Both the position numbers and the translations under genes were made by a program. From Aquifex aeolicus VF5 (GTDB taxonomy: Bacteria; Aquificota; Aquificia; Aquificales; Aquificaceae), in the NCBI RefSeq assembly GCF_000008625.1, contig NC_000918.1:120001-152000 (forward strand): a DNA stretch of 32,000 nucleotides. Reading direction: 5' to 3'. The notes below the pieces were generated by a model. That model saw nothing but the letters and a program-made list of their open reading frames with translations, was not told the DNA's origin and did not search any database. This document shows positions 1 through 14,582 of this stretch, in pieces (positions within the stretch are counted from its first letter, which is position 1; every line of letters begins with the position of its first letter).

Positions 1-162
1 AGTTTAACAAACGTTCACGGAGTTTACAAGCTCAAGTTCGGAGGTGGAAGGATTTACGTAAGGAAGGAAGGGGACAGGTGGGTAGTTATCGGTATACTGG
101 ATACGGAGCAGGACAAGGAAAAAGAGCGCTACATAGAGTCTTTGAGGGATAGATTGTATTAA
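1..162 (+). CDS. 3' end (53 codons) of a gene starting upstream of the window; function unknown, with only a weak RelE/ParE/Gp49-like toxin flavour
   Basis: Frame +1 is open from base 1 to TAA at 160-162 and reads ...HGVYKLKFGGGRIYVRKEGDRWVVIGILDTEQDKEKERYIESLRDRLY*. Composition matches the neighbouring genes. It is missing from the ORF track only because it has no start codon in the window. Confidence 0.4.
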   Translation, partial: SLTNVHGVYKLKFGGGRIYVRKEGDRWVVIGILDTEQDKEKERYIESLRDRLY

Positions 163-179: not shown

Positions 180-227
180 TGATAAAGGACTTAGCAAAAA
201 CTTTGATAAAAACAAAGGAGGAAAGAC

Positions 228-1451
228 ATGGCAGAATTAAGGGAAACTCTCGAAAGACTCGCATCCTTCAGACCTCAAAATTACTACGTTTCCACCCTTT
301 ATTTGAGATTAATGCCCGAAGACAGGCAGGACAACAAGTACCTGAGGGTTTACAAGGACCTAGTGAAAAAGAAGGAAAAGGATTTAGAAAACCTGAACCT
401 GGATAAAGAGGTTCTTGATTCTATAAGGGGGGACATTAAGAACATTCAGGACTTTTTATCCGATCCTAAAAACCTTTACAACTGCAGGGGGATAGCGATA
501 TTTTCCTGCTCAAAGCTCGGACTGTTTGAGTACGTGAAACTTCCCTACGTTTACAGAAACAGGCTTATGTTCTCACCTGACCCTCTCGTGAGGGAAATAG
601 CGGCGATAGACGAGGAGTTCGGAAGGGTTGCAGTTCTGCTTCTTGACAGAAAACACATAAGGTACTTCCTCATGGACATAACGGGAATAGAAGAAAAGCT
701 GGACTTCTTAGAGCCCATGACCACGAGAGCCCACAGGTTCCACAGCGGAGGAGCGCTTCTCAAAGGTGCGGAGGGAACGTTCCAGTACAGAATGCCCGCG
801 AGGGGTGCAGCGCCAAACGTAGTTCAGCACGGAATGGGTGAGTGGCGTTTCCACATGAGATTAAGGGAAGAGTGGCACAGGATACTCAAACTCGCATCGG
901 ACGCCCTCTTTGAAGAGTGGAAGAGAATACACTTTGACAAGTTAATAATCGGGGGATTTATAGAAGAAGGTCTGAGGGAAATAGAAAACTTCCTGCACCC
1001 ATACGTTAAAGAAAAACTGGTGGGTTACATAGAGATAACGCCCGAAGAGGCAACTCCCCATCAAGTTTGGGAAAAAGCCCTTGACCTCCTTTGGCAAAAG
1101 GACAGGGAGCAGGAAAAGGAAATAATTAAGGAGCTTGAAGAATTAAAGGGCTGGGGACTCGCGGTTAACGGAACTTCGGAAGTTCTTGAAATGCTAGCCA
1201 TAGGAAACGTAAGAACGCTAATTCTTCCAGAGGACTTTGAAAAACCCGGATACCTCTGTCCGCAGAGTCACCTCGCATTCTTAAAGCCCGAGTGCCCCCT
1301 TCCCGAAGAAAAGCCCATTCCCGTAAGCGACGTGGTTGACGAGGCATTAGAAGAGGCCCTGGATCAAAGGGCAACGATAGAGGTTATAATAGATAAGGAA
1401 CTCCAGAAGAAGGTGGACGGACTTGCGGCGTTCTTAAGGTTTAAGCTATGA
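228..1451 (+). CDS. Bacterial eRF1/aRF1/Pelota-like protein (baeRF1-type), with a degenerate GGQ loop (HSGGA)
   Basis: 407-aa ORF with SD AAAGGAGG 6-7 nt upstream of the ATG. The C-terminus GLAVNGTSEVLEMLAIGNVRTLILPED...VDGLAAFLRF matches the eRF1/Pelota domain-3 pattern (..G..EV..AL..GAV..LL...GGIAAILRY). The centre, RFHSGGALLKG...WRFHMRLREEWHR, lines up with the eRF1 M-domain (RGGQSA.RF.RLR.E). Confidence 0.6.
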   Translation: MAELRETLERLASFRPQNYYVSTLYLRLMPEDRQDNKYLRVYKDLVKKKEKDLENLNLDKEVLDSIRGDIKNIQDFLSDPKNLYNCRGIAIFSCSKLGLFEYVKLPYVYRNRLMFSPDPLVREIAAIDEEFGRVAVLLLDRKHIRYFLMDITGIEEKLDFLEPMTTRAHRFHSGGALLKGAEGTFQYRMPARGAAPNVVQHGMGEWRFHMRLREEWHRILKLASDALFEEWKRIHFDKLIIGGFIEEGLREIENFLHPYVKEKLVGYIEITPEEATPHQVWEKALDLLWQKDREQEKEIIKELEELKGWGLAVNGTSEVLEMLAIGNVRTLILPEDFEKPGYLCPQSHLAFLKPECPLPEEKPIPVSDVVDEALEEALDQRATIEVIIDKELQKKVDGLAAFLRFKL

Positions 1452-2074
1452 ACGAGAGGTTAATGATATTCATCGACGGTTCTAATCTGTTTCACGGAAT
1501 ACGGTACTTGAACATAAAGGTGGATTATTCAAAACTCGTGGAGTTCTTGAGGGAGGGGCGCTACCTCGTTCGCGCTTACTTTTACACCGCCGTTCCTCAG
1601 GAAAAGGACATCAAGAAGGGAACGCCCGAGTGGGACAGTCTTCAGAGACAAAAGAGGTTCCTTGACGAACTTTCCTTTATGGGCATAAAAGTGAAGACAG
1701 CTCACTTGAGGAAACTCCCGAGCGGTGAGTACCTGGAAAAGGAAGTTGACATAATGCTTGCCACGGATATGCTCTCCCTTGCTTACAGAAACGCTTACGA
1801 TACGGCTGTTCTCGTTAGCGGGGATAGCGACTTTATACACACCGTGGAAGCGGTGCAGAGTCTGGGAAAGAGGGTGGAAAACGCAACATTCAAGAAAACG
1901 AGTTCCTACAACCTGAGAAAGGTGTGCGACAGGTTCATACTTCTGGACGACCATCTTGACAAGATACTCATGGAGGAGAAGGGTAAAGAAATAGTTCCCG
2001 TGGAAGAGGAGGAAAAAGGAACGGAAGAAAGGGAAGGCTTTTTGGAAAGGTTTAAAAAATTCTTCGGGCTATGA
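1448..2074 (+). CDS. NYN/LabA-like (PIN-fold) ribonuclease domain protein with an acidic C-terminal tail
   Basis: 208-aa ORF whose start overlaps the upstream stop (ATGA at 1448-1451). It carries the NYN motifs MIFIDGSNLFHG, EVDIMLATDM and LVSGDSDFIHTVEAVQSLGKRV. Confidence 0.75.
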   Translation: MNERLMIFIDGSNLFHGIRYLNIKVDYSKLVEFLREGRYLVRAYFYTAVPQEKDIKKGTPEWDSLQRQKRFLDELSFMGIKVKTAHLRKLPSGEYLEKEVDIMLATDMLSLAYRNAYDTAVLVSGDSDFIHTVEAVQSLGKRVENATFKKTSSYNLRKVCDRFILLDDHLDKILMEEKGKEIVPVEEEEKGTEEREGFLERFKKFFGL

Positions 2075-2679
2075 AACTGCTGGTTGCCACCACAAACGAA
2101 GGAAAGTACAGGGAGATAAAAGAAATTCTTTCCGAGTATGGTATTGAAGTATTAAAACCCGAGGAAAAACTGGAAGTAGAGGAAACGGGTTGTACATTTT
2201 TAGAAAACGCATACCTGAAGGCTAGAGCTTACTACGAAAGGTACAAAATCCCTGCGCTTGCGGACGACTCCGGTCTTATCGTTGAAGCCATAAGCCCATA
2301 TCCGGGTGTGTATTCCAGCAGGTTTTACGACATAGACTTCGGCGGCAGGGAAGAAGTAAGAACGAACAAGGACGAAGCAAACATAAGAAAACTTTTAAGG
2401 CTTTTGGAAAACACAGAAAACAGGAAGGCAAAATTTGTAGCTTTTATAGTCGTATACGGGGGAAGTTGGGGAATTTTTGCAGAAGGAGAAGTCAGGGGAG
2501 AGATAACGAAAGAGCCGAGGGGAGACAGAGGTTTTGGCTACGACCCCGTTTTCGTTCCGGAAGGTTATAACAAAACCATGGCTGAACTTTCTCCGGAAGA
2601 AAAGAACAAAATATCCCACAGGGGGAGAGCTTTAAGAAAGCTCGTACATGTACTGAAAAATTGTGAAAAAGCTTTCTGA
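2071..2679 (+). CDS. rdgB: Non-canonical purine NTP pyrophosphatase (dITP/XTP pyrophosphatase, RdgB/HAM1 family)
   Basis: 202 aa, with ATGA overlap to the NYN gene at 2071-2074. Motifs: LLVATTNEGKYREIKEIL, PALADDSGL, FGYDPVFVPEGYNKTMAEL and ISHRGRAL. Confidence 0.9.
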   Translation: MKLLVATTNEGKYREIKEILSEYGIEVLKPEEKLEVEETGCTFLENAYLKARAYYERYKIPALADDSGLIVEAISPYPGVYSSRFYDIDFGGREEVRTNKDEANIRKLLRLLENTENRKAKFVAFIVVYGGSWGIFAEGEVRGEITKEPRGDRGFGYDPVFVPEGYNKTMAELSPEEKNKISHRGRALRKLVHVLKNCEKAF

Positions 2680-3844
2680 AAAGTTAAGAGCTTACGAAGT
2701 TCTAAGGGAAGTCTTCAACGTAATTGCGGTTATCTCCCTGAACAGGTTTAAAAAAACGAGACACATAGTCTCTCAAGAGTATCCCTACTTTGAAAGGTTA
2801 AAGGAGGTTCTTGAGCATCTCTTTGCCCTTCATCCGACTCATCCGCTATTCAAACCAAGAGAGGAAAAAAGAGTTTCGGTAGTAGTGTTTACCTCAGACC
2901 TTTCCTTTACGAGAGAGCTCTGCAACAAGATTTTTAAAAGTGTCCCCGAATTTCGGGAGACGGAGTTTATAATCTTCGGAGGAAAGTGCAGGAAGAAAGA
3001 TTTATTTGAGAGACTTAAACCGAAGGTTATCTCAAACACTTTTACTAAGCTTGTAGACTACTCAAAGATTTTAAAAACTTTTGAAGAACTCTTTGAAAGG
3101 TTTGCATCAAAGGAACTGGATGCGGTCTACGTCGTAAGCGCACTTCCGTTTTTGGAAAGGGCTGAAGGAAAGGGAAAAAGGGAAACGGGAAAATCTATAA
3201 AGGAAGAGGAAGTAAAGAGGGAAATACTGTACACAAGGGGAGCGAGGTACGTAAGGGCGGTAGAACTTGGAGAGAGCGGGAGAATAGAGGTTTACGTTGA
3301 GAGGTTCTTACCTCCGAAGATAAAAGGGGTTTACAGGAAGGACTTAATCCTAAACTTTGAAGGAAATGAAGAGGAAATAATAAGAACCGTTCTCAAACTG
3401 TACACGGAGTTTCACGCAAAGTTCTTGAGTTTAGCACACTGGAATGCCTTGAACCTTCAGCGTTTCAGAACGGCAAAGAGAATTCAGGACAATTTGGAAA
3501 GGAAGATAAAGAATTTAAAGAGGCTCATAAGTAAGGAAAGGCAAGAAAAGATTAACAGAGAACTACAGGACATAGCCCTTTCACTTCTGGCTTTAGAAGA
3601 GAAGAAGTTTAAAGACATTGAACACAAAGATTATGTCCTCGAGATAGATAAAAATCTTGAAGAAAGTCTAAAGAAAAAGGTAATAGAAATACTGAAAGAA
3701 CACTTTCCCATTTTAGAAGTTAAGGAGGTGGAAGGATTGCTCGGTTTTTACTTGAGGGGAGAGGGCAAGGTATACAACGCCAGTACCCTGAAACAACTGG
3801 AACTCTTTGTAAGAGAAATTATCTTAAGGGTGGACCGATCTTGA
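2663..3844 (+). CDS. Divergent F1-ATPase gamma-subunit-like protein with a C-terminal extension of about 65 aa (orphan paralog)
   Basis: 393 aa with a GTG start at 2663, the first start after an in-frame TGA at 2654. There is no internal Met and a 17-nt overlap with rdgB. The N-terminus, ...LNRFKKTRHIVSQEYPYFERLKEVLEHL...HPLFKPREEKRVSVVVFTSDLSFTRELCNKIFK, follows the gamma pattern (AAAKLRKAQ...RPY...L..VL..L...HPLL....KKVGYIVITSDRGLCGGFN.N..K). The C-terminal helix, LNLQRFRTAKRIQDNLERKIKNLKRLISKERQEKINRELQDIALSLLAL, follows SE..ARM.AM..AT.NA..LI..L.L.YNR.RQA.IT.EL.EIV.GA.AL. Confidence 0.5.
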   Translation: MKKLSEKLRAYEVLREVFNVIAVISLNRFKKTRHIVSQEYPYFERLKEVLEHLFALHPTHPLFKPREEKRVSVVVFTSDLSFTRELCNKIFKSVPEFRETEFIIFGGKCRKKDLFERLKPKVISNTFTKLVDYSKILKTFEELFERFASKELDAVYVVSALPFLERAEGKGKRETGKSIKEEEVKREILYTRGARYVRAVELGESGRIEVYVERFLPPKIKGVYRKDLILNFEGNEEEIIRTVLKLYTEFHAKFLSLAHWNALNLQRFRTAKRIQDNLERKIKNLKRLISKERQEKINRELQDIALSLLALEEKKFKDIEHKDYVLEIDKNLEESLKKKVIEILKEHFPILEVKEVEGLLGFYLRGEGKVYNASTLKQLELFVREIILRVDRS

Positions 3845-4700
3845 CGAGACCCGTTTCCGTAATTTCCATAAAGTGGGTTTTTGTGTCGTGCCCGCAGAGT
3901 CTGCATCCGTCAATCCTGAAGAGTCGAACTATATCGCCTATCTCCTTTTTGTATATCTGTGCCTGATACTTAGTCATTATTAATTCCTTTGCAAGAACCA
4001 TCGTACAGTCAACTATGTGGCTTATGGCAAAACCGCCTGCGGCTTCCGCGGAAAGTTCTTCGTGGGAACTCCTCTTTTGGGAAACAAAGAGAGCGGTCTG
4101 ATACCACTTCTTCATGAAGTTAAAGAGTTGTCTCACTATAGTCCTTGCGAGCATTTCCTTGGCTTCGTACAACCCTGTTACAGAGTCTATTATGGTGTGC
4201 TTCACCTTGTAAGTTTTTATTACGTGTGCTAGAGTGGCGAGCAGGTTCGGGATGTTTTCCCTGAGCGTTGCGTGACTTGCGGCGTCTATGAGTATTATCT
4301 TATCCTTTATCTTGTCAAAGTCTACGCCCATTGCGGTTGCCCTTTCTCTTAGTCCCATGGTAACGAAGGGTGCAGGGCTTTCAACGGTTATAAAGGCAAC
4401 AGGTTCTCCCCTTTCCGCCTGCTTTACTGTGTACTGTTCCACCATCAAGGACTTTCCCGTATCTGAAACGCCGGTTATGTTCGTAACGGAATACCTTGGT
4501 ATACCGCCTAAAGGTACTTTTACAACTTTCCCTTCCCTGATTTCAGACTTGAAGAAGAGTTCATCCAGTCCCTCTACTCCCGTGGGAACACCTTCGAGTT
4601 TAGGAGCTTTCTTGAGGGCCTCTTCCGCTACCCATATACCCTCTTCTACGACTCTGGGTTTTTCTTGATGTTCTTCCTCGTAGTGTTTTTTGTAGTCCAT
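3819..4700 (-). CDS. Single-domain KaiC/RadA-like RecA-superfamily ATPase
   Basis: 293 aa with SD GGGAGGT 5 nt upstream of the ATG. PTGVEGLDELF...GGIPRYSVTNITGVSDTGKSLMVEQY contains the Walker A motif; HTIIDSVTGL is Walker-B-like. The 3' end overlaps the convergent 2663-3844 gene by 26 nt. Confidence 0.8.
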   Translation of the reverse strand: MDYKKHYEEEHQEKPRVVEEGIWVAEEALKKAPKLEGVPTGVEGLDELFFKSEIREGKVVKVPLGGIPRYSVTNITGVSDTGKSLMVEQYTVKQAERGEPVAFITVESPAPFVTMGLRERATAMGVDFDKIKDKIILIDAASHATLRENIPNLLATLAHVIKTYKVKHTIIDSVTGLYEAKEMLARTIVRQLFNFMKKWYQTALFVSQKRSSHEELSAEAAGGFAISHIVDCTMVLAKELIMTKYQAQIYKKEIGDIVRLFRIDGCRLCGHDTKTHFMEITETGLVKIGPPLR

Positions 4701-4820: not shown

Positions 4821-7800
4821 ATGAAAGTAGTTATCGTTGGAAACGGAATAGCCGGAACGGCTCTTGTAGAGGAAATACTACGATTAAGCAGTGGAAAAGA
4901 TATAAGAATTCAAGTCTTTGGAGATGAAAAGTTTATAGGTTACAACAGGGTTCTCATAACAGAAGTTCTGGCTGGCAGGAAAACACTCAGTGAGATATAC
5001 ATAAAGCGCTGGCAGTGGTACGAGGAAAAGGGAGTAAGGCTGGAAATCGGTAAGAAGGTGGAAAGACTATTTCCCAATAAGAAGATACTCGTAACGAAAG
5101 ACGGGGAATTTTACAGGTACGATAAAGCTATAATAGCAACGGGAAGTAAGCCCTTTATACCTCCTTCTATTAAAGGCGTAAATAAAAAAGGTGTATTCAC
5201 TTACAGGACAGCAAAGGACGTTTTTGAAATTCTGGATTACGCCAGGGTTTCAAAAAGGGCGGTGGTAATCGGGGGAGGACTCCTCGGTATAGAAGTGACT
5301 AAAGCCCTAAGGGACATAGGTCTCGAAGTTTTTCTGGTTCATATCCTTGACACCCTAATGGAACAGCAACTTGATAAAACGGCTTCTGAGCTCCTAAGAA
5401 AGGATTTAGAAGATATGGGAATAAAAGTATTGCTCAAAAAAGTTACGGAAGAAATCTTAGGGGAGAAGAAAGCCGAGGGAGTACGTTTTTCAGATGGTGA
5501 TGAACTCCTTGCTGATTTTGTAATCATCGCTACGGGAATAAGACCGAACGTTGAAGTCGGTGTAAATTCAGGTCTAAAAGTAAACAAGGGCATAGTGGTT
5601 AACGACTACTTGGAGACCTCTGCGAGTGATATCTACGCCGTTGGAGAGTGTATAGAACACAGAGGAAAAACTTATGGTCTGGTAGCCCCAATAATGGAGC
5701 AAGTCAAGGTATGCGCTCACAACGTTGTTCACGGAAATGAAAAGAAGTACACGGGATCACTTACCTACGCTATGTTAAAGGTTGCGGGTGTAAATCTGTT
5801 TTCTGCGGGGGAAATTAACGAAAAAGACGGAGACGAGGTTGTAGCTTTTCTAGATAACGGAAGGTCACTGTATAGGAAAGCGGTAATCAGAAATAACAAA
5901 ATTGTAGGAACAATTTTGTATGGAGATGTAAGGGGAAACAATTACCTCCTCGACCTAATAAAAAGCGGTAAAGATATATCGGAAGAAAGACCGTATTTTC
6001 TTATAAAACACATCCTTCCCAAGGGCACAACCGGGGTTGAAGAACTTAAGGATAATGACATAGTTTGCAACTGCAACGCAGTAACGAAAGGCGAGATAGT
6101 CAAGTGCATTAAAGAAGGGTGTAAAACTTTAGAGGAAATTCAGGAAAGAACAAAAGCTTCTACTTCATGCGGTAGTTGTATAGAACTCGTTGAAGAAATA
6201 CTGAAACACTACGTAAAAGAAAAACCAAAGCGTGTTAATAAAATTGAGGTTATAAAAAAGGAGCTTCATCCCTTTGACTTAGAGTTTAAAAAACGTTTAG
6301 AGAAGTACTTTTCCGAAGGAGAGCTTGAAAACATTCCAGAAGAGGACAGGGACGTAAGACTAAAGTGGTATGGCATCTTTTACAGAAAAGCTACTCCAGG
6401 ATACTTCATGGTCAGAATTAGGGTTCCTAACGGAAGGCTTTCCTACGAGCAGGCTAAGGTAGTTTCCCACATTTCGGAGAAGTTCTGCAGGGGAGAAGTG
6501 GAAATAACTTCCCGTCAGCAACTTCAGATTAGGTGGATAAAGTTAAAAGATTTACCTGAAATCCTTGAAGCGTTAAACAGGGTAGGCCTTTCAACACTCC
6601 AGACGGGTATGGATAACGTGAGGAATGTAACAGGTGACCCTCTTACAGGTCTCGCAGAAGATTCTCTTATAGATACCCTGAGATTGTCTCAAGAGATAAC
6701 AAATATCTTTTTAGGTAAAAAGAAGTACGCAGACCTTCCAAGAAAACTAAACGTAGCGGTTCTGGGTTCACAAACGGACTGTATAAACGCCCTGTTTAAC
6801 GACGTTTGTTTTTACCTTTCGGAGAAGGATGGAAAGCTCGGTTTTAACCTTTATCTGGGCGGAAAGATAGGTTCAGGTGGCCCTAAAAAAGCGATAGATA
6901 TGGACATGTTCGTAGAACCTTACGAAGTACCCGAGGTGTTCAAGGCAACACTTGATATTTATTCAACTTTTGGAAACAGGGAAAACAGAAGTAAAAACAG
7001 ACTGTATTTCCTTCTTCAAGAGTGGGGAGTTGAAAGGTTCAGAGAAGAACTGGAAAAGAGACTGTACAAAGCTATACCCTCAAAAGGGAAAGATTTGGTA
7101 AACAAAACGGGGGAAAGGGAGGGGATTATAAACCTCAGGAATGGAACTTACGCAGTCTGTGTTGTAGTTCCGGCAGGAAAGATAAAGGCTAAGGACTTTA
7201 GACAGATTGCAGAGCTTGCAAGGAAATACGGAAGCAGAGAGCTCAGGTTAAGTGTGTATCAAAATATATACATCCCGAACATCCCGGAAGAGAACCTGAA
7301 CCCACTTCTCGGAGAAGAAATCTTTGAAAAGTTCAGCACGGTTAGCTCTCCTTTTACAATGCATCTTATAGCCTGTGCGGGAAGTGATACCTGTTCCTTT
7401 GGTGTCATACCTAACAAGAGTGACGCTGTGAGGGTGGCCAAATACTTAAGCGAAAGACTCAAACTTGACATTCCTGTCAGGATGCACTGGTCCGCCTGTG
7501 CCAAAGGTTGCGGTCAACACGGGAGCGGAGATATAGGATTTGTAGGGACTAAAACCAAGCTAAATGGAAAAGCTGTGCTGGCTGTAGACGTATTCGTCGG
7601 AGGTTCACCCACAAAGGAAGGTTTCAAAGTAATTCAAGGGCTTCCTTTAGATAAAGTGGAGGAAGCTTCTTACCTACTGCTTAACTACTACCTTGAAAAC
7701 AGACTAGAGGGGGAGAGCTTTGCGGATTTCGCCCACAGGGTAGGAGTGGATAAACTCAAGGTGGTTCTTACAAGTCTTTTACAGGAAGGGGAATGTAAGC

Positions 7801-7829
7801 TACTGAAACCCGAGAGTATAAGCAAGTAA
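4821..7829 (+). CDS. nirB: Assimilatory NAD(P)H nitrite reductase: a NirB-type flavoprotein and BFD [2Fe-2S] module fused to a full two-lobed sirohaem/[4Fe-4S] nitrite/sulfite reductase module
   Basis: 1002 aa. The N-terminus VVIVGNGIAGTA and a second Rossmann motif VVIGGGLLGIE mark the flavoprotein. CNCNAVTKGEI...SCGSC is the BFD-like 2Fe-2S motif. DVRLKWYGIFY, CAGSDTCSFG and SACAKGCGQHG are NiR/SiR hemoprotein motifs. Confidence 0.85.
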   Translation: MKVVIVGNGIAGTALVEEILRLSSGKDIRIQVFGDEKFIGYNRVLITEVLAGRKTLSEIYIKRWQWYEEKGVRLEIGKKVERLFPNKKILVTKDGEFYRYDKAIIATGSKPFIPPSIKGVNKKGVFTYRTAKDVFEILDYARVSKRAVVIGGGLLGIEVTKALRDIGLEVFLVHILDTLMEQQLDKTASELLRKDLEDMGIKVLLKKVTEEILGEKKAEGVRFSDGDELLADFVIIATGIRPNVEVGVNSGLKVNKGIVVNDYLETSASDIYAVGECIEHRGKTYGLVAPIMEQVKVCAHNVVHGNEKKYTGSLTYAMLKVAGVNLFSAGEINEKDGDEVVAFLDNGRSLYRKAVIRNNKIVGTILYGDVRGNNYLLDLIKSGKDISEERPYFLIKHILPKGTTGVEELKDNDIVCNCNAVTKGEIVKCIKEGCKTLEEIQERTKASTSCGSCIELVEEILKHYVKEKPKRVNKIEVIKKELHPFDLEFKKRLEKYFSEGELENIPEEDRDVRLKWYGIFYRKATPGYFMVRIRVPNGRLSYEQAKVVSHISEKFCRGEVEITSRQQLQIRWIKLKDLPEILEALNRVGLSTLQTGMDNVRNVTGDPLTGLAEDSLIDTLRLSQEITNIFLGKKKYADLPRKLNVAVLGSQTDCINALFNDVCFYLSEKDGKLGFNLYLGGKIGSGGPKKAIDMDMFVEPYEVPEVFKATLDIYSTFGNRENRSKNRLYFLLQEWGVERFREELEKRLYKAIPSKGKDLVNKTGEREGIINLRNGTYAVCVVVPAGKIKAKDFRQIAELARKYGSRELRLSVYQNIYIPNIPEENLNPLLGEEIFEKFSTVSSPFTMHLIACAGSDTCSFGVIPNKSDAVRVAKYLSERLKLDIPVRMHWSACAKGCGQHGSGDIGFVGTKTKLNGKAVLAVDVFVGGSPTKEGFKVIQGLPLDKVEEASYLLLNYYLENRLEGESFADFAHRVGVDKLKVVLTSLLQEGECKLLKPESISK

Positions 7830-7844
7830 AGGAGGAAGTGGAGT

Positions 7845-8579
7845 ATGGGAAAGGTTTACCTCATAGGAGCCGGTCCTGGAGACCCTGAGCTTCTGACACT
7901 TAAAGCTTATCGTATTCTCAGGAAAGCTGACGTAGTTCTATACGATGCCTTGGTAAACAGGGAAATACTTCACTTTGCCAGACAAGACAGCCTTAAGATA
8001 TACGTGGGCAAGAGAGACGGAAAACACTCCTTGCCTCAGGAGGAGATAAATGAACTTCTTCACAGGTTTGCACTTAGCTACAAAATTGTAGTTAGACTTA
8101 AAGGCGGTGACCCTTTTGTGTTCGGAAGGGGCGGAGAAGAACTCCTTTACCTAAAAAGCAGGGGTGTGGAAGTGGAAATAGTACCGGGTATAACTTCGGC
8201 GATTTCTGCACCCTCCTCCGCTTTCATTCCCGTAACACATAGGGGAATAGCCTCGTCGTTTGCGGTTGTTACAGGCCACCCCAACAGAGAAATAAAATGG
8301 GAGGATTTAGTGAATATAGATACACTCGTTGTTCTTATGGGTGTTAAGAACAGAGAAAAGATAGCGAGAGAACTTATAGGAGCAGGACGAAACCCGGACG
8401 AACCCGTTGCCTTTATAGAGAAGGCTACAACTCCGGAGCAGAGGGAAGTTTTCAGCACATTGAAAGAAGTTGCTCAAAACCCGCCGGAGGTAAACCCGCC
8501 CGCTGTAATGGTTGTAGGAAAGGTCGTAGAAATAGGAGCAAAAGTCCTATGTGAACGTATAATCGGCGTTACACTTTAA
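7845..8579 (+). CDS. cobA: Uroporphyrinogen-III C-methyltransferase (SUMT; sirohaem synthesis)
   Basis: 244 aa with VYLIGAGPGDPELLTLKA, VVRLKGGDPFVFGRGGEE and VPGITSA. It sits immediately downstream of the sirohaem-dependent nirB. Confidence 0.85.
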   Translation: MGKVYLIGAGPGDPELLTLKAYRILRKADVVLYDALVNREILHFARQDSLKIYVGKRDGKHSLPQEEINELLHRFALSYKIVVRLKGGDPFVFGRGGEELLYLKSRGVEVEIVPGITSAISAPSSAFIPVTHRGIASSFAVVTGHPNREIKWEDLVNIDTLVVLMGVKNREKIARELIGAGRNPDEPVAFIEKATTPEQREVFSTLKEVAQNPPEVNPPAVMVVGKVVEIGAKVLCERIIGVTL

Positions 8580-8583
8580 AGGA

Positions 8584-9513
8584 ATGGACATTTTAGAAAG
8601 AACTTTCAAAAAATTAACGAGACTTAAGGATAACCTTCAGGACCTTTCTCAGGAAGAAGCCTATGAAGTATTTAGGGCTATACTTGAAGGTAAACTCTCA
8701 GATATAAAGACAACTGCCTTCCTGACAGCCATGAGGATAAAGGGGGAAACTTCTGAGGAACTCCTCGGTGTAATTAAGGCAATTAAAGAGAGAATGAATT
8801 TTCCGCAGAAGAAAGAGGACGCCTTAGACCTCGGTCTGAACTATGACGGGAAGAACAGGACCATTTATATCCTTCCCTCTGCCCTGTGGCTCTGTTCAAG
8901 ACTCGGTGTAGAGTTCACAAACCACTACGCTCTTGGAGCTCCAACGAAAGAAGGTGTTACCCTCTACGAAGTAGTTAAGGAACTTGGTGTAGATATGAAC
9001 GTATCCTTTGTAGACCAAAAGAATTACGCACCGGAGCTATACAAACTCATGCCTCTGAGAAGAGAACTCGGTTTCAGGAGCTTGATAAACACGGTAGAAA
9101 AGTTTCTAAATCCCTTTCAGACTAAAAAGATTGTCGTTTCTATCTTTCACAAGCCGTACTTTGATAAGAACGCAGAGCTTCTTGAGCTCCTCGGGATTGA
9201 AGACTACACAATTATCAAGGGGCTTGAGGGCGGGATTGAGCCTCTCCCTGATAGACCCACGCTCGTAAAGAAGAGAGGGAAGGACATAGAAAGTATAGAA
9301 CCTAAATCCCTCGGTCTTGAAATGCCCAAGGATGTTCATTCTGAAAACGTCCTGAGGGATTCGCTTGAGATAAACAGAAAGATAATTGATGGTAGAGAGA
9401 GGGGAGAGTTCTTCAACTGGGCGCTTTACACGGCGGGGGTATTGCTCTACGCGGCAGGGGAGTGCGAAAGTGTGGAAGAGGGGGTAGGAAGGGTAGAGAA
9501 AGAATCCACCTGA
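8584..9513 (+). CDS. Anthranilate phosphoribosyltransferase-like (glycosyltransferase family 3) protein with degenerate catalytic motifs
   Basis: 309 aa. The N-terminal helical domain, LSQEEAYEVFRAILEGKLSDIKTTAFLTAMRIKGETSEEL, is typical of TrpD. However, GTGGDG is replaced by GLNYDG and KHGNR by NHYAL. Confidence 0.65.
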   Translation: MDILERTFKKLTRLKDNLQDLSQEEAYEVFRAILEGKLSDIKTTAFLTAMRIKGETSEELLGVIKAIKERMNFPQKKEDALDLGLNYDGKNRTIYILPSALWLCSRLGVEFTNHYALGAPTKEGVTLYEVVKELGVDMNVSFVDQKNYAPELYKLMPLRRELGFRSLINTVEKFLNPFQTKKIVVSIFHKPYFDKNAELLELLGIEDYTIIKGLEGGIEPLPDRPTLVKKRGKDIESIEPKSLGLEMPKDVHSENVLRDSLEINRKIIDGRERGEFFNWALYTAGVLLYAAGECESVEEGVGRVEKEST

Positions 9514-9521
9514 AACAAAAA

Positions 9522-9531
9522 TGTAGCTACA
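9522..9531. promoter_or_regulatory. Palindrome TGTAGCTACA; a second palindrome CTGTTAAAACAG lies at 9579-9590. Both are upstream of the globin-operon sigma-54 promoter and are candidate EBP or architectural-protein sites
   Basis: Read directly. It shares the TGTA...TACAAAA frame with the nirB upstream palindrome. Confidence 0.3.
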
Positions 9532-9603
9532 AAATTGTACGCAAAGCGTCTCCACAATCAGAGAAAAGTTTCCAAGAACTGTTAAAACAGAACGGGGAGA
9601 ATT

Positions 9604-9619
9604 TGGCACGCTTTTTGCA
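9604..9619 (+). promoter_or_regulatory. Sigma-54 (-24/-12) promoter of the globin-cynS-PII-porter-narB operon
   Basis: TGGCACGCTTTTTGCA is an exact match to TGGCAC-N5-TTGCW. It ends 27 nt upstream of the ATG at 9647. Confidence 0.8.
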
Positions 9620-9646
9620 ATTAGTTTGAGTGAAGGAGGTGAAAAG

Positions 9647-10066
9647 ATGTTGTCCGAGGAGACTATCAGGGTCATTAAGTCAACTGTCCCTCTTCTGAAA
9701 GAGCATGGTACGGAGATAACTGCTAGGATGTACGAATTGCTGTTTTCAAAGTATCCTAAAACTAAGGAGTTATTTGCAGGGGCTTCGGAGGAACAACCAA
9801 AGAAGCTTGCAAACGCCATAATAGCCTACGCTACCTACATTGATAGGCTAGAGGAGCTTGATAACGCTATCTCAACGATAGCCAGGAGTCATGTGCGAAG
9901 AAATGTAAAGCCGGAACATTATCCGCTGGTTAAAGAATGTCTCTTACAGGCAATTGAAGAGGTTTTAAATCCTGGGGAGGAAGTTCTCAAAGCATGGGAA
10001 GAGGCGTACGATTTTCTTGCTAAAACGCTTATAACCCTAGAGAAAAAACTTTATAGCCAGCCTTAG
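9647..10066 (+). CDS. Single-domain bacterial haemoglobin (Vitreoscilla Hb / flavohaemoglobin globin-domain type; thermoglobin-like)
   Basis: 139 aa counted from the ATG at 9647, with SD GGAGGTG 5 nt upstream. Tyr-B10 lies in ITARMYELLF, Gln-E7 in EEQPKKLANAI and the proximal His in IARSHVRRNVKPEHYPLV. The TTG start at 9626 in the ORF track is less likely, because the SD would then fall inside the ORF. Confidence 0.85.
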   Translation: MLSEETIRVIKSTVPLLKEHGTEITARMYELLFSKYPKTKELFAGASEEQPKKLANAIIAYATYIDRLEELDNAISTIARSHVRRNVKPEHYPLVKECLLQAIEEVLNPGEEVLKAWEEAYDFLAKTLITLEKKLYSQP

Positions 10067-10078
10067 GGAGGTCTAATT

Positions 10079-10528
10079 ATGAGGAGCGATATAGGAAGGC
10101 TCTCTAAGTACTTAATTGAAAGGAAAAAGAATCTTGGTCTTACGTGGGAAGATGTAAGCAGAAAGCTTGGGAAAAGCCCCGTTTATTGTGCAATGCTCTT
10201 CTATGGATACGCTCAGGCCGACGATGAAGAGGTTAAAGCTGTAGCTGAGCTTTTGAATCTGGAAGAGAAGGAGCTCGCGGAGCTGAAAGATGCCCCATAC
10301 AGAGAACCTCAGCAACCCGTCCCGCCTACGGATCCCTTCGTTTACAGGCTCTATGAAGTTGTTATTCTCTACGGACCGGCTTTAAAAGATGTAGCCCACG
10401 AAATGTTCGGGGACGGGATAATGAGTGCTATAGATATGAGCGTTGAGCTTGAAAAAGTTGAGCAGGAGGGGGCTGAGCGTATGGTTTTAACCTTTAATGG
10501 CAAATGGCTGAAGTACAGGAAGTTTTAA
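10079..10528 (+). CDS. cynS: Cyanate hydratase (cyanase)
   Basis: 149 aa with SD GGGAGGT. The sequence LGLTWEDVSRKLGKSPVYCAMLFYG...DPFVYRLYEVVILYGPALKDVAHEMFGDGIMSAIDM...FNGKWLKYRKF is a full-length cyanase pattern. Confidence 0.9.
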   Translation: MRSDIGRLSKYLIERKKNLGLTWEDVSRKLGKSPVYCAMLFYGYAQADDEEVKAVAELLNLEEKELAELKDAPYREPQQPVPPTDPFVYRLYEVVILYGPALKDVAHEMFGDGIMSAIDMSVELEKVEQEGAERMVLTFNGKWLKYRKF

Positions 10529-10543
10529 AGGGAGGATTTAGAA

Positions 10544-11161
10544 ATGGAAGAGCTCTTGGCAATTGTCAGGAAGGAAAAGTCTTACGATGTGATGAAATCC
10601 TTATCTGAGGCTGAGATACCTTACGTTTCCTGGACTGTGAAGGGGAGGGGGAAGGAGGGGGGACTCAGATATAAAGGTCTTATTAAAGAAAAGGTCCTCA
10701 TGCCTTTCCTGCCAAAAAGGGCTTTCTTGGTCTTTCCCGAGGAGGGCAAAGTAAATGAGGCTGTGAACCTTATCGTTGAAAGTGCTCACACGGGTGCTTA
10801 CGGAGATGGGAAGGTCTTTTTGATAAACCAGGAGGTAGGCGTTATGAAACTTGTAAAGGCTGTTATAAGACCTGAGAAAGTCTACGAAGTAATTAAGGCT
10901 CTCGAGAGCGAAGGATTTAAAGCTATGACCATGTGGGATGTGGTAGGAAGAGGAAAGGAGGGGGGGATCTTGGTGGGAGGGACTCCTTACGACGAGCTCG
11001 CTAAGACGCTCATCATGGTCGCGGTAAAGGATGAGGACGTTGACAAGGTTATACAGAGCATAACGAAAGCTGCGCACACGGGTGCTTACGGAGATGGGAA
11101 GGTGTTCGTTTGCAGCATTTCAAAAGTTTGGACCATAAGGACTAAGGAGGAGGAGCTATGA
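10544..11161 (+). CDS. glnB: Tandem-domain PII (GlnB/GlnK-like) signal-transduction protein: two PII domains in one polypeptide
   Basis: 205 aa. Each half carries RGKEGG (T-loop base) and HTGAYGDGKVF (the PII TG..GDGKIF motif). An internal SD GGAGGT (10831-10836) lies 7 nt upstream of the in-frame ATG at 10844 that opens domain 2. The stop overlaps the porter start (ATGA). Confidence 0.8.
   Translation: MEELLAIVRKEKSYDVMKSLSEAEIPYVSWTVKGRGKEGGLRYKGLIKEKVLMPFLPKRAFLVFPEEGKVNEAVNLIVESAHTGAYGDGKVFLINQEVGVMKLVKAVIRPEKVYEVIKALESEGFKAMTMWDVVGRGKEGGILVGGTPYDELAKTLIMVAVKDEDVDKVIQSITKAAHTGAYGDGKVFVCSISKVWTIRTKEEEL
10787..10815 (+). repeat. Copy 1 of a 29-nt perfect direct repeat inside the tandem PII gene
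   Basis: CACACGGGTGCTTACGGAGATGGGAAGGT is identical to 11075-11103 and encodes HTGAYGDGKV in both domains. Confidence 0.9.
11075..11103 (+). repeat. Copy 2 of the 29-nt perfect direct repeat inside the tandem PII gene
   Basis: Identical to 10787-10815. The copies are offset by 288 nt (96 codons). Confidence 0.9.
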
Positions 11162-12585
11162 ATTTCCTGAAGGAGATAATTGAAGCAATTAAGAAGGGAA
11201 ATCCAAAAGCTCTGTTTGCCAGTTTTATATACTTTGACCATTCATTCAGTATATGGCTACTCTTAGGAGCTCTTGGACCTTTTATAGCTGAGTCCTTCGG
11301 ACTCTCAGGAGCCCAAAAAGGTTTTATGGTTGCAATTCCCGTAATAGCCGCAGCCATATTCAGACTCAACTTCGGACATATGTTCCAGTATATAGACGGG
11401 AAGTACATAGCGATAATGGGCATAATCCTTTCCTCTATCCCTCACCTTTACATGATACTCAGCGGATATCGTGTAACCTACGATGACCTTCTCTGGATGG
11501 GGGTTTTTCTCGGTATCGCAGGAGCAAGCTTTGCGATAGCCCTCCCTATGGCGGGAAGTAACTACCCGAAAGAGGTTCAAGGACTCGTACTTGGACTTGC
11601 CGCGGCGGGAAACATAGGAGCTGTTTTAGACGGTATACTCTTTCCTCCTATTGCAAGGTCCATCGGTTGGGAAAATACCTTCGTTCTTTCGGGAATACTC
11701 CTTCTTATAGCCCTGTTTTTTGTCGTTATCTGGGCGCGGGACCTTACCAAGAAGAACGAAGGGAATAGGTTTTATCCCGTATTTGCATTCTTTGCCACTA
11801 TAGCTTTTATGGTAATACTGGCTCTCGGTTTTCAAAAGGGATGGTTCGGTATAACCGGAAACGCTGGAAAACTCCTCATACCGGTACTTGGTTCTGTATT
11901 TGCTATACTCCTTATGCCTCTTGCCTTTAAAAAGGTGTTCCTGGAAAGGGACACGTGGGTACTTATGCTCGCTTACTCCATAACTTTCGGCGGTTTTGTA
12001 GGAATGTCCTCGTACGTGGCTATGCTCCTTAGGGACATATACGGTATATCCAAAGTGGAGGCAGGAGCTCTTATGTCCCTTTTTGCCTTTACGGGTGCGA
12101 TGATAAGACCTCTGGGGGGACATATCGCGGATAAAATAAGCGGAGCTACAGCACTTCTCTTTTTCCTCGCGGGCATAGCGGGAGTTAACTTCATATTTTC
12201 CCTCGTAACACCGCCTCTGGCGGTAGGTATAGTTTTATTCCTTGCACTCTACTCCTTCTATGGACTTGGAAACGGTGCTGTATTTCAGCTCGTTCCTCAC
12301 AGGTGGCCATATCAAACTGGACTTATGACGGGAATAATCGGAGCTGCCGGAGGTATCGGTGGTTTTTACCTGCCCGTTGTAAACGGAATAGTCTTTGAGT
12401 CCACGGGAGCTTACAACCTGGCGTTTGCACTCTTCGGAGGAATAGCCCTGCTGTGTCTCCTTATAGTTAAGCTTCTTCATGCTCGCTGGATGGAATGGGC
12501 CTACGTTCGCTACGACTACGAAAAAGAAACGTTGGTTGGTATTGATCCTAAGAGTGGAAGGGTAATTATGGAGTTGGCAAGATGA
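11158..12585 (+). CDS. narK: MFS nitrate/nitrite porter (NNP family, NarK/NasA/NrtP type)
   Basis: 475 aa and highly hydrophobic, with about 12 predicted TM segments. It has glycine-rich NNP-like motifs (AGAAGGIGGFYLP, GLGNGAVFQLVP). ATGA overlaps occur at both ends. Confidence 0.8.
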   Translation: MNFLKEIIEAIKKGNPKALFASFIYFDHSFSIWLLLGALGPFIAESFGLSGAQKGFMVAIPVIAAAIFRLNFGHMFQYIDGKYIAIMGIILSSIPHLYMILSGYRVTYDDLLWMGVFLGIAGASFAIALPMAGSNYPKEVQGLVLGLAAAGNIGAVLDGILFPPIARSIGWENTFVLSGILLLIALFFVVIWARDLTKKNEGNRFYPVFAFFATIAFMVILALGFQKGWFGITGNAGKLLIPVLGSVFAILLMPLAFKKVFLERDTWVLMLAYSITFGGFVGMSSYVAMLLRDIYGISKVEAGALMSLFAFTGAMIRPLGGHIADKISGATALLFFLAGIAGVNFIFSLVTPPLAVGIVLFLALYSFYGLGNGAVFQLVPHRWPYQTGLMTGIIGAAGGIGGFYLPVVNGIVFESTGAYNLAFALFGGIALLCLLIVKLLHARWMEWAYVRYDYEKETLVGIDPKSGRVIMELAR

Positions 12586-14582
12586 AGAGGTTTCAATGTC
12601 CTTACTGCGGTGTAGGATGCGGTCTTTACATAAACGAGAAGGGTAAGGTGAAAGGGGATTTTGAACATCCCGCTAATCTCGGGGACATCTGTAAGAAGCC
12701 CTTGTATTTACCGAAGGTACTGAATAGGGGAAGGATAGCGAAGCCCATGTACAGGGAAAATAAGAGTCACAGCTTCAGGGAAATAAGTTGGGAGGAAGCT
12801 TACGAGATACTAAAAGAGAAGCTCATCTCCTTTTCTCCCGACGAAACTTACTTTTATCTTTCGGGACAACTTTTAACGGAGGATATATACGTAGCAAACA
12901 AGTTCGTTAAAGGTTTTCTCAGAACCAATAACGTTGACGCAAACTCAAGACTTTGTATGGCTTCTGCAGTTACCGCTTACAAACTCGCTTTTGGTTCCGA
13001 CGGTGTTCCCTGTACGTACGAGGACGTGGACGATGCGGATGCCTTCCTTTTTATAGGTTCTAACGCTGCCGTAGCTCATCCTGTTCTTTTTAAAAGGGTT
13101 CTGAAGAGGAGGAAGGAAGAAGAAAAAGTAATTATAGTAACCGTAGATCCGCTGGAAACGGAAACCGCCAAAAGGAGCGATGTTTTCATTCAAATAAAAG
13201 CTGGAACGGATACGGTTTTCCTCAACTCCGTTTTATACGTTCTGCATAAGGAGGGGTGGATAGATTACCGCTTTATTTACAACTACACGGAGGGATTTGA
13301 AGAGGCTCTGGAAGTTGCCATGAAATTCCCTCCAGATGTGGCCGCCAGCATTTGTAGCGTCAAACCGGAAGACGTATACCTCGTAGCGGAGCTCTTTGCC
13401 CACAGTAAAAAACTTATCTCCTTCTGGTGTCAAGGGTTAAATCAGTCCTTAAATGGGACTATGAAAAATCTGGCTTTGATAAACCTCCACTTGGCCACCG
13501 GAAGGCTCAACGAAAAGGGATGTCCCTTTTCCTTAACCGGTCAACCGAACGCCATGGGAGGTAGAGAAGTAGGTTATCTCACAAACGGTCTTCCCGGATA
13601 CAGAGATGTCAGGAATAAGGCGGACAGAGCATTTATGGAGAAATTCTGGGGCGTTAAAGGTATAAAGAAAGAGCCGGGACCCACAATTACGGAAGCGATA
13701 GACATGATTCTAAAAGACAGAATAAAGTTTCTCTGGGTGGTATGCACAAATCCCGCGGTGTCTTTACCCAACTTAGAAAAAGTTAAAAGGGCTCTTGAGA
13801 AGGTTTTCTTAGTAGTTCAGGACGCTTACTGGAATGACACCTGCGAGTTTGCAAATTTAATACTGCCCGCCGCACAACTGGGAGAAAAAGAAGGAGTTAT
13901 GACTGGTTCCGATAGAACTGTTACATTTTGTGAGCGTTTTTCCGAGCCTTTTGGTGAATCAAAGCCAGACTGGCTCATATTTACTGAGCTTGCAAGAAAG
14001 ATGGGAGCCGAAGAGCTTTTCCCTTACTCTTCTCCAAAGGAAATATTTGAGGAATTTAAAGCCTCAACCAAGGGGAGATTGTGCGACATGAGTAATTTAT
14101 CCTACGAAAACCTTCCCGCAAGGTGGGGCAAAAGATGGCTCTATGAAGACCTAAAATTCCCAACGGAAAGCGGAAAAGCAAGATTTCACCCCGCACGGGT
14201 AGATGTGGCAGCTGAAGAAGGGATGTTTATACTTCTGACGGGAAGATTAAAGAACAACTGGCACACTATGACGAGAACTGGAAAGAGCCCGGAACTGTTG
14301 AAAGGTGAAATTCCACCTTTTGTGATAATGAATCCCAGAGACGCGGAGGAACTGGGAATAGAGGAAGGAGAGGAAGTGATACTGAGTGCAAAGGGAAAAG
14401 AAATAACCAGAGTTGTCAGGTTCGGAAACGTAAAAAGAGGACACATATTCGCACCTTTCGGTTATCCTTCCGAATACGGAGAGCCTACTAATTTGTTAAC
14501 GTCCGACAGAACGGATCCTTACTCAAAGGAGCCGGATCTTAAGTACTCAGGGGTAGATGTGTTTGTAAAAGTAAATAGGTGA
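12582..14582 (+). CDS. narB: Assimilatory nitrate reductase catalytic subunit (molybdopterin oxidoreductase, NarB/NasA type)
   Basis: 666 aa. The N-terminal [4Fe-4S] motif is CPYCGVGCG...C. The body is MGD-enzyme-like (GSNAAVAHPV, LTGQPNAMGGREVG, VVCTNPAVSLPN). It has no signal peptide. Confidence 0.85.
   Translation: MKRFQCPYCGVGCGLYINEKGKVKGDFEHPANLGDICKKPLYLPKVLNRGRIAKPMYRENKSHSFREISWEEAYEILKEKLISFSPDETYFYLSGQLLTEDIYVANKFVKGFLRTNNVDANSRLCMASAVTAYKLAFGSDGVPCTYEDVDDADAFLFIGSNAAVAHPVLFKRVLKRRKEEEKVIIVTVDPLETETAKRSDVFIQIKAGTDTVFLNSVLYVLHKEGWIDYRFIYNYTEGFEEALEVAMKFPPDVAASICSVKPEDVYLVAELFAHSKKLISFWCQGLNQSLNGTMKNLALINLHLATGRLNEKGCPFSLTGQPNAMGGREVGYLTNGLPGYRDVRNKADRAFMEKFWGVKGIKKEPGPTITEAIDMILKDRIKFLWVVCTNPAVSLPNLEKVKRALEKVFLVVQDAYWNDTCEFANLILPAAQLGEKEGVMTGSDRTVTFCERFSEPFGESKPDWLIFTELARKMGAEELFPYSSPKEIFEEFKASTKGRLCDMSNLSYENLPARWGKRWLYEDLKFPTESGKARFHPARVDVAAEEGMFILLTGRLKNNWHTMTRTGKSPELLKGEIPPFVIMNPRDAEELGIEEGEEVILSAKGKEITRVVRFGNVKRGHIFAPFGYPSEYGEPTNLLTSDRTDPYSKEPDLKYSGVDVFVKVNR

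Follow-up and report, generated by a model that had tools for sequence, protein, structure and literature searches.

Gene organization of the aq_199 locus

We studied two overlapping genes at positions 228-2074 of a 32,000-nucleotide (nt) stretch of the Aquifex aeolicus VF5 chromosome (NC_000918.1, positions 120,001 to 152,000 of the forward strand; hereafter the window). The first, aq_199, is an open reading frame (ORF) at 228-1451 (+) coding for a 407-residue protein of the eRF1/Pelota type, and the second, at 1448-2074 (+), codes for a 208-residue protein of the NYN nuclease family. The aq_199 product is identical to AAC06549.1/WP_010880076.1 (UniProt O66578), annotated as "eukaryotic peptide chain release factor subunit 1", and the NYN product to AAC06550.1 (O66579), annotated as "NYN domain-containing protein". 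An earlier reading of this DNA (the original prediction) had taken the pair for a translationally coupled candidate module of ribosome surveillance or defence; both ORFs, the ATGA at 1448-1451, the residues HSGGA encoded at 741-755 and the three NYN motifs that it had named were all read in the sequence. The features of the locus are as follows, in window positions:

1-162 (+): 3' end of the upstream gene u400, its last 53 codons and stop, in reading frame 1 of the window
214-221 (+): strong Shine-Dalgarno sequence AAAGGAGG, 6 nt 5' of the aq_199 ATG, read directly in the sequence
228-1451 (+): aq_199, baeRF-1 clade family 12/10, predicted three-domain aeRF1 fold, Balon-like, without GGQ and without NIKS
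726-842 (+): extended loop of aq_199, residues 167-205, at the position of the eRF1 GGQ loop and the Balon lasso loop
1248-1298 (+): beta-hairpin insertion in domain 3 of aq_199, residues 341-357, from model strands and invariant columns
1448-1451 (+): ATGA start/stop overlap of aq_199 and the NYN gene, read directly in the sequence
1448-2074 (+): putative NYN (LabA-type, PF01936) endoribonuclease gene, UniProt O66579
2033-2071 (+): predicted C-terminal amphipathic helix of the NYN protein, EGFLERFKKFFGL, from alignment, model and hydrophobic moment
2071-2679 (+): rdgB/HAM1 inosine triphosphatase gene, ATGA-coupled to the NYN gene

The gene order in the VF5 genome with flanks (L077) is trpD, u400, 65 nt, aq_199, NYN, rdgB and an ATP-synthase-gamma-like gene. 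Between 228 and 3844 no convincing internal terminator was found on the + strand. The NYN gene is joined to rdgB by a second ATGA overlap, at 2071-2074, and in so compact a genome the overlap alone is therefore weak evidence of a special link between aq_199 and its neighbour.

Fold and family of the encoded proteins

aq_199 matched Pfam baeRF_family12 (PF18856) with an E value of 1.1e-18 and 68.5 bits, against a gathering cut-off of 27.7, the match sitting on the central RNase-H-fold (eRF1 M-like) domain. It also exceeded the gathering cut-off of baeRF_family10 (PF18854; 42.8 bits vs 27.1, E 8e-11), and eRF1_3 was slightly under its own (E 2.5e-5). All 120 listed homologues of aq_199 carried PF18856 and nearly all carried PF18854. 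An AlphaFold2 (AF2) model built on 23 homologues had a predicted local distance difference test score (pLDDT) of 84.5 and a predicted template modelling score of 0.79, and was confident save for residues 167-202. In Foldseek searches of the PDB the best match of this model was the Balon protein Msmeg1130 (8v9j_z; E 1.4e-19, template modelling scores, or TM, of 0.64/0.70), and the P. urativorans Balon (8rd8_B, E 3e-17) and 8v9l_z were also among the top matches. Full-length matches came in the order Balon, aRF1, eRF1 and Pelota, over a range of E 1e-19 to 1e-8, the best ones, to Balon proteins, running from E 1e-19 to 1e-14 with TM up to 0.70. A profile search of the PDB with the aq_199 family likewise recovered aRF1 and Pelota, the Pelota match spanning only part of the M domain. 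The protein thus presents the N-M-C three-domain architecture of the aeRF1 superfamily with a Pelota/eRF1_3-type C-terminal domain, and the Pfam family, the model and the Foldseek matches uphold the original assignment of an eRF1/Pelota-fold protein without GGQ.

Strands E341-344 and E349-351 of the model form a hairpin in domain 3, in which two Cys residues (C344 and C356) are invariant; it occupies the position that the zinc ribbon has in aRF1 and the EF-Tu-binding hairpin has in Balon (hairpin descriptions in PMC6514570 and PMC10901736). With Balon aq_199 shares the three-domain aeRF1 fold in a bacterium, the lack of GGQ and NIKS, a flexible extended loop in place of GGQ and the domain 3 beta-hairpin, and its fold is nearest Balon; on the evidence of the model, aq_199 would belong to a Balon-like class of the eRF1 fold. 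The eRF1-like annotation of aq_199, its family and the general mode of action were already known. The conserved motif of its N domain in the Aquificota alignment is KLPYVYRNRL. Three family-10 relatives of 459-481 aa (P0343, P0353 and P0295) bear a zf-HC2 anti-sigma-type zinc finger N-terminal to the eRF1-like body; no baeRF-NYN fusion protein was found, the long family-10 relatives having the N-terminal zf-HC2 instead. A further protein search with the diverse baeRF alignment returned mainly family-10 proteins of Gemmatimonadales.

Two other identities were considered for aq_199 and dropped. It is not taken for an active class-1 release factor, as it has neither GGQ nor a NIKS motif in its N domain and the aRF1 model TIGR03676 gave 40.5 bits against a cut-off of 234.7. 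Nor is it taken for Dom34/Pelota, since its Pelota matches, at E 1e-8 or worse and TM at most 0.36, were outranked by those to Balon, aRF1 and eRF1.

The loop at residues 167-205 is the most conserved segment of aq_199 within Aquificota, with 15 of 39 positions invariant vs 63 of 407 overall (consensus TRAHxFHSGG..LKGA.G...P.R..PN..QHG.GE), and is predicted to be disordered (pLDDT below 50 for residues 167-202). G174 and G175 of the HSGGA stretch are invariant and residue 176 is variable (A/S/G/D/T/R). Wider relatives are without most of the loop and have in common only G-x-G-E-[HYW]-x-[FY]-H directly before the long M-domain helix, the place where eRF1 has GGQ-SALRF. Because these relatives align the GGQ equivalent at the invariant H201-G-x-G204-E205, two registers appear possible: GGA followed by an insertion of about 25 residues, or the insertion first and then HG.GE. 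GGQ is absent under either; of the original claim, a GGQ degraded to GGA and followed by an insertion of about 25 aa, the loss of GGQ holds and the GGA register is only one of two.

Q200 occurs in 21 of 23 family members, with Arg in the other 2, and H201, G204 and E205 are invariant. The near-invariance of Q200 makes a non-canonical catalytic role conceivable, one that we do not favor. In such a role aq_199 would be an active non-GGQ peptidyl-tRNA hydrolase or rescue factor, an alternative of the Aquificae to transfer-messenger RNA: the nucleases encoded beside it would create non-stop complexes and the loop (e.g., Q200/H201 or G204-E205) would release the peptide. The extreme conservation of the loop would fit, and a few baeRF-1 families have retained a conserved Gln and could be catalytic, notably family 10, to which aq_199 also shows a match; ArfB is absent from Aquificae (PMC6514570). 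We nevertheless regard a rescue enzyme as quite improbable, given the Arg at position 200 in two members, the missing GGQ context, a loop unconserved in wider relatives and nearest structures that are non-hydrolytic Balon proteins.

The second protein matched Pfam NYN (PF01936) with E 8.9e-35 and 120.8 bits (cut-off 24.2). It carries the motifs FIDGSN, EVDIMLATD and SGDSDF, and residues D10, E99, D101, D107, D126 and D128 are invariant in 19 of 19 orthologues; judged by these acidic residues, its active site is intact. The AF2 model (pLDDT 84.4) resembled 2qip with TM 0.83 and the NYN domains of MARF1 with 0.64-0.71 (target-normalised), and 2qip was its sole sequence relative in the PDB. Score, fold and invariant residues agree with the NYN/PIN nuclease with acidic motifs first proposed for this gene. 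The protein has the same fold and acidic active-site pattern as LabA/VPA0982 (2qip) and MARF1, whose NYN domain is a proven endoribonuclease (PMC6294520), but it is only 15-22% identical to them and adds an acidic linker and an amphipathic C-terminal helix.

The NYN protein, with orthologues 59-89% identical, is better conserved than the eRF1-like protein, and neither Pfam nor the model revealed an accessory RNA-binding domain. In model and alignment the orthologues share the acidic disordered linker (residues 179-197), followed by a helix at 198-206. The C-terminal helix (residues 196-208, consensus [SG]FW[ED][RK]I..[LF][WF]K, hydrophobic moment 0.47-0.80) possibly binds a membrane or a partner, and resembles membrane-targeting helices such as that of MinD. 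The Aquificota NYN RNase is probably membrane-associated.

The gene upstream of aq_199, u400, codes for 400 aa in VF5 (full gene L077:5733-6935), and the part in window 1-162 encodes the beta-sheet core of a RelE-like domain (YKLKFGGGRIY...WVVIGIL...EQDKEKERY). In 38 Aquificaceae loci of GTDB it precedes the eRF1-like gene at a distance of 2-65 nt. Four hydrophobic, transmembrane-like segments fall within its first 105 residues and are followed by a 195-residue stretch with 74% E/K/R/D/Q/L and 1% P+G, consistent with a coiled coil. Pfam and NCBIfam gave no match to u400. PHROG phrog_1213, "RelE-like toxin", matched the VF5 protein with E 2.5e-6 over 75 of 88 profile positions and was the best match in 8 of 10 u400 orthologues and, in a further set, in 9 of 21. 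A profile search of the PDB with the C-terminal domain returned only four matches at E <=0.03, all to E. coli RelE (about 0.02), and hhalign aligned the domain with RelE at E 4.7e-4 and a probability of 32%. These profile matches to RelE-family models place the domain in the RelE/ParE fold. Its invariant K, K/R and R align with RelE K52, K54 and R61, and a near-invariant Tyr lies near Y87, residues with catalytic roles in RelE; an equivalent of RelE R81 was not matched in the alignment. RelE is a ribosome-dependent endonuclease that cuts mRNA in the A site; the u400 domain differs from it in being fused to a four-segment transmembrane anchor and to some 200 aa of coiled coil, and the locus shows no evident antitoxin gene. 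From the positive-inside rule the four segments would place the RelE-like head in the cytoplasm. The domain would be a second A-site-type nuclease fold, coherent in theme with aq_199. In Thermocrinis-type loci (L022:2941-3867, L025 and L026) the position of u400 is taken by a gene for a 308-aa class II aminoacyl-tRNA-synthetase core (PF00152, E 1e-33) which overlaps the start of the eRF1-like gene by 4 nt; it is probably an EpmA/PoxA-type enzyme modifying EF-P, another link to translation stalling.

Conservation of the gene pair and its limits

The family profile was run against GTDB, each species being represented by a single genome, and yielded 58 Aquificota loci and 3 distant ones; downstream sequence was available for 56 of the Aquificota loci. 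The NYN gene lay directly downstream of the eRF1-like gene in 49 of the 56, with the 4-nt ATGA overlap in 44, a 10-nt gap in 3 and a longer gap in 2; the proposed translational coupling is thus supported by an overlap conserved in 44 loci. Linkage persists while the eRF1-like protein diverges to 54% identity. The flanks change meanwhile: upstream stands u400, an EpmA-like gene or an acetyl-CoA synthetase gene, and downstream rdgB in Aquifex/Hydrogenivirga-type loci or ribF in Hydrogenobacter/Thermocrinis-type loci. As ribF takes its place there, rdgB is outside the conserved core, although in VF5 it is co-transcribed with the pair. In a divergent lineage (P0242; eRF1-like protein 42% and NYN protein 65% identical) the two genes are still together, overlapping by 13 nt, although their neighborhood is unrelated. 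Since the pair stays while its flanks change, and is kept elsewhere in P0242, the pattern looks like that expected of a functionally linked pair. Several Aquificaceae-type proteins (P0092, P0095, P0120, P0183 and P0234) came under implausible source labels (Pyrobaculum, Acidobacteria, Acinetobacter baumannii, Desulfurococcaceae and Gammaproteobacteria), probably by mis-binning or contamination.

Our preferred reading, to which we give a probability of about 0.4, is that aq_199 and the NYN gene may be the conserved core of a housekeeping operon of the Aquificaceae whose products, an A-site blocker and mRNA-cutting nucleases, would act on ribosomes during stalling or stress.

A number of observations weigh against this reading. 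The NYN gene is missing downstream in 7 of the 56 Aquificota loci, six of them from one deeper lineage (eRF1-like protein 50-55% identical) in which the eRF1-like gene adjoins coaD, or a ferritin-like gene and gltB, and the NYN gene stands elsewhere, next to yidC (L062, L102, L108 and L110). The gltB fragments of two related contigs are 92% identical, which suggests for this lineage the order eRF1-like gene, ferritin, gltB, NYN and a distance of about 5.5 kb between the first and the last of them. The seventh locus (L024, a 3793-nt contig of Sulfurihydrogenibium yellowstonense SS-5) has a Thermocrinis-like eRF1-like gene followed by AT-rich non-coding DNA and is probably chimeric.

A scan from the NYN side, run on metagenomes with loci grouped by NYN identity, showed losses within the paired group itself. 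Where identity of the NYN protein was 71% or more (64% in L138, over a fragment), the eRF1-like gene lay upstream at 17 loci; four contigs of two sequence types (L088, L089, L098 and L100) had only an in-frame remnant, 90-100 aa long, in which residues 1-69 run straight on into 351/370-405 and which still abuts the NYN gene, and in two contigs (L093 and L094) another, unrelated ORF replaced it. All six contigs, from Thermocrinis-like populations, have an intact NYN gene with ribF intact downstream. The eRF1-like gene is thus dispensable in nature, and the NYN gene can do without it and is not lethal in its absence; the partnership is facultative, and NYN also has a role of its own.

Farther relatives showed no pairing. 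In the metagenome scan no eRF1-like neighbor was found for NYN relatives at 56-69% identity, nor at any of 45 loci of relatives at 35-48%, and no NYN neighbor was present in the seven non-Aquificota eRF1-like contexts sampled (P0241, P0243, P0246, P0247 and L059-L061; the P0246 contig is short and its next gene is not NYN-like). As none of these relatives has it, the pairing would be an Aquificaceae-centered innovation. The expected linkage in other genomes was accordingly borne out in 49 of 56 Aquificota loci, with the genes unlinked in one lineage and the pairing unseen outside the group. One of these contexts (L065:2523-4559) runs from P0241, a non-Aquificaceae protein of family 10/12 without NYN, through an acylphosphatase gene to that of bL12, the stalk protein in contact with EF-Tu on ribosomes that carry Balon, a proximity which may be coincidence.

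Further points of the same kind concern the operon and the likeness to Balon. The NYN gene is ATGA-coupled to rdgB just as to aq_199, and operons made up of unrelated genes are known in A. aeolicus. aq_199 is only 11-16% identical to Balon proteins, and the NCBIfam Balon-type models AOC03_06830, MSMEG_1130 and Rv2629 gave it 56.4, 30.3 and 17.0 bits, far under their cut-offs of 330, 480 and 320. In Balon an HP motif of the N domain contacts A1492/A1913 (PMC10901736), and no conserved His-Pro was found among the invariant N-domain columns of the aq_199 family, which were not compared with Balon residue by residue.

The same data bear on the explanation that the two genes are co-located but independent, NYN being a general Aquificota RNase of RNA processing or decay, aq_199 a stand-alone Balon-type hibernation factor, and their shared transcript a matter of co-regulation or genome compaction. 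NYN orthologues are present in all sampled Aquificota lineages, also where unlinked from the eRF1-like gene, and the gene survives intact where its neighbor is deleted or replaced; coupling to rdgB, or to ribF, and the confinement of the pairing to one group point the same way. Mere co-location would not, on the other hand, readily account for an adjacency and exact ATGA kept in 44 species-level genomes while every other neighbor changes, for a pair retained after relocation in the divergent lineage, or for a nuclease without an RNA-targeting domain of its own, and we consider independence somewhat unlikely.

Possible mechanism, comparison with known systems and genomic context

If the preferred reading, an A-site blocker encoded with mRNA-cutting nucleases, is right, aq_199 would be a Balon-like, non-hydrolytic blocker that enters the A site when 70S ribosomes are idle or stalled, the conserved 39-residue loop of the protein reaching toward the peptidyl-transferase center. 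The NYN RNase would be translated from the shared transcript in a fixed ratio to aq_199 and would cut mRNA on or beside aq_199-bound ribosomes, and the RelE-like domain, where present, would do likewise. Translation would be turned off and the message cleared, and the ribosome would be silenced and preserved. The transmembrane anchor of u400, the amphipathic tail of NYN and the NYN-yidC adjacency in the sister lineage suggest that this action would take place near the membrane.

Several known systems offer parts of such a scheme. The original prediction had stated that bacterial eRF1-like families lack biochemistry, a view now outdated: Balon and its mycobacterial homologues, Msmeg1130 of M. 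smegmatis and Rv2629 of M. tuberculosis, were seen by cryo-electron microscopy (cryo-EM) in 2024 in the ribosomal A site with EF-Tu, and Balon binds ribosomes that retain mRNA and peptidyl-tRNA (PMC10901736). Genes next to Balon include those for RaiA, Hsp20, the RNA ligase RtcB and similar proteins (PMC10901736), whereas aq_199 has as neighbors an NYN RNase and a RelE-like membrane protein, and neither the window nor the annotated 7 kb upstream of it showed a RaiA/HPF gene. The aq_199 loop differs from that of Balon in its lineage-specific, highly conserved sequence. The baeRF families were defined in 2019 by Burroughs and Aravind, who predicted that most baeRF-1 proteins, linked to HPF, inhibit at the A site without catalytic activity, and the main text of that paper reports this neighborhood link and neither NYN nor RelE-like genes (PMC6514570).

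The Dom34/Pelota-Hbs1 system also combines a GGQ-less aeRF1-fold A-site factor with a separate endonuclease acting on the mRNA of stalled ribosomes, Cue2/NONU-1 in eukaryotes and SmrB in E. coli. It differs in its nuclease, which here is NYN and not SMR, and no dedicated GTPase or ABCE1-like partner was found near aq_199. The Dom34-like idea of a stalled ribosome recognized and its mRNA cleaved, put forward in the original prediction, is plausible, and the RelE-like gene upstream strengthens it. As for Rae1, it is a small PIN/NYN-fold RNase of the YacP-like NYN family, not of PF01936, and it is not known to have an eRF1-like partner gene. The Aquifex NYN protein had no Rae1 match in the Pfam, PDB sequence or Foldseek results. 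Rae1 of B. subtilis cleaves mRNA at stalled ribosomes (PMC12407103, PMC10351889), its cleavage needing translating or stalled ribosomes.

A more far-reaching version would make the three genes, for the membrane-tethered RelE-like protein, aq_199 and NYN, a bacterial pathway of no-go decay and ribosome rescue that substitutes for the ArfA/ArfB-type back-up factors which Aquificae lack. The RelE-like head would cut A-site mRNA on membrane-proximal stalled ribosomes, aq_199 would enter the emptied A site, where its non-GGQ loop would release the peptide or split the ribosome, and NYN would destroy the mRNA. We hold this version to be improbable.

The roles could also be reversed, aq_199 being a safeguard and not a targeting subunit, which during stress would shield the A site and decoding center from the RelE-like domain and NYN. 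Hibernation factors do guard ribosomal active centers against nucleases (PMC10901736), and from the fold assignments RelE-type domains and aeRF1-type factors would compete for one A site; translational coupling would then set the ratio of shield to nuclease. The natural genotypes with NYN and without aq_199 speak against such a safeguard, NYN being tolerated there unshielded, and make it a clearly unlikely explanation.

The surroundings of the pair bear on a last explanation, a toxin-antitoxin or abortive-infection module that shuts down translation on phage attack. The window and its 7-kb upstream flank contain housekeeping genes (trpD, nitrate/nitrite assimilation, cyanase, P-II, PNPase, dUTPase, guaA and sodC) and no mobile element was found in them; scans of the window for tRNA genes and Rfam families gave no match. 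PADLOC gave no match for aq_199, rdgB, the gamma-like or the KaiC-like gene (see below), and for the NYN protein only domain-level matches, HEC-09 (E 1.3e-18) and NYN (1.2e-13). No phage homologue of aq_199 was found, and there was one weak match on a large plasmid. Inheritance of the genes is vertical, their divergence tracking the lineages. The NYN matches in PADLOC, the RelE-like domain encoded upstream and the tie between baeRF-1 and biological conflicts drawn by Burroughs and Aravind (PMC6514570) could be cited for defence. The abortive-infection alternative of the original prediction is nonetheless rejected in view of the PADLOC, phage and plasmid results, the genomic context, the vertical inheritance and the natural genotypes that keep NYN without aq_199, in which loss of the putative "antitoxin" is tolerated. 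A defence role is very improbable, and a ribosome-silencing and mRNA-clearing module is more likely than a defence system.

Two other genes follow rdgB. At 2663-3844 (+) lies the ATP-synthase-gamma-like paralogue, of 393 aa with a C-terminal extension (Pfam E 1e-23), which scores far under every NCBIfam atpG cut-off and is fast-evolving, with 31-47% identity among Aquifex-type loci; the 5' end of its gene overlaps the stop of rdgB, and the 3' end a convergent KaiC-like gene. The latter, at 3819-4700 (-), encodes a single-domain KaiC-family ATPase (PF06745, E 4.5e-61) with 82-93% identity among Aquifex-type loci. A nitrogen-assimilation cluster occupies window 4821-14582 (+). It encodes a 1002-aa fusion of a NirB-type flavoprotein and a sirohaem nitrite/sulfite reductase, a SUMT-type methylase, a TrpD-like protein of glycosyltransferase family 3, a globin, a cyanase, a 205-aa protein with two P-II stretches, a major facilitator superfamily transporter and a molybdopterin nitrate-reductase-like enzyme.

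No published report of a coupling between baeRF/Balon and NYN genes, or of a RelE-like membrane protein upstream of them, was found in the searchable literature, the supplementary neighborhood tables of PMC6514570 and PMC10901736 lying outside the search. Through Balon, bacteria silence ribosomes that possibly still carry mRNA and a nascent chain, and the fate of that mRNA is the question on which this operon bears. In these deep-branching thermophiles the operon hard-wires an A-site factor to one, and usually two, nucleases, a testable link to mRNA cleavage which would parallel the Dom34-dependent no-go decay of eukaryotes. Coming from A. aeolicus, the proteins should lend themselves to biochemical and cryo-EM work, for which ribosomes of Thermus or Aquifex might serve, and the natural deletion variants already indicate which component is dispensable. 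Should the two proteins prove independent, the locus would still place aq_199 in a Balon-like class and add a conserved, probably membrane-associated NYN RNase of the Aquificota.

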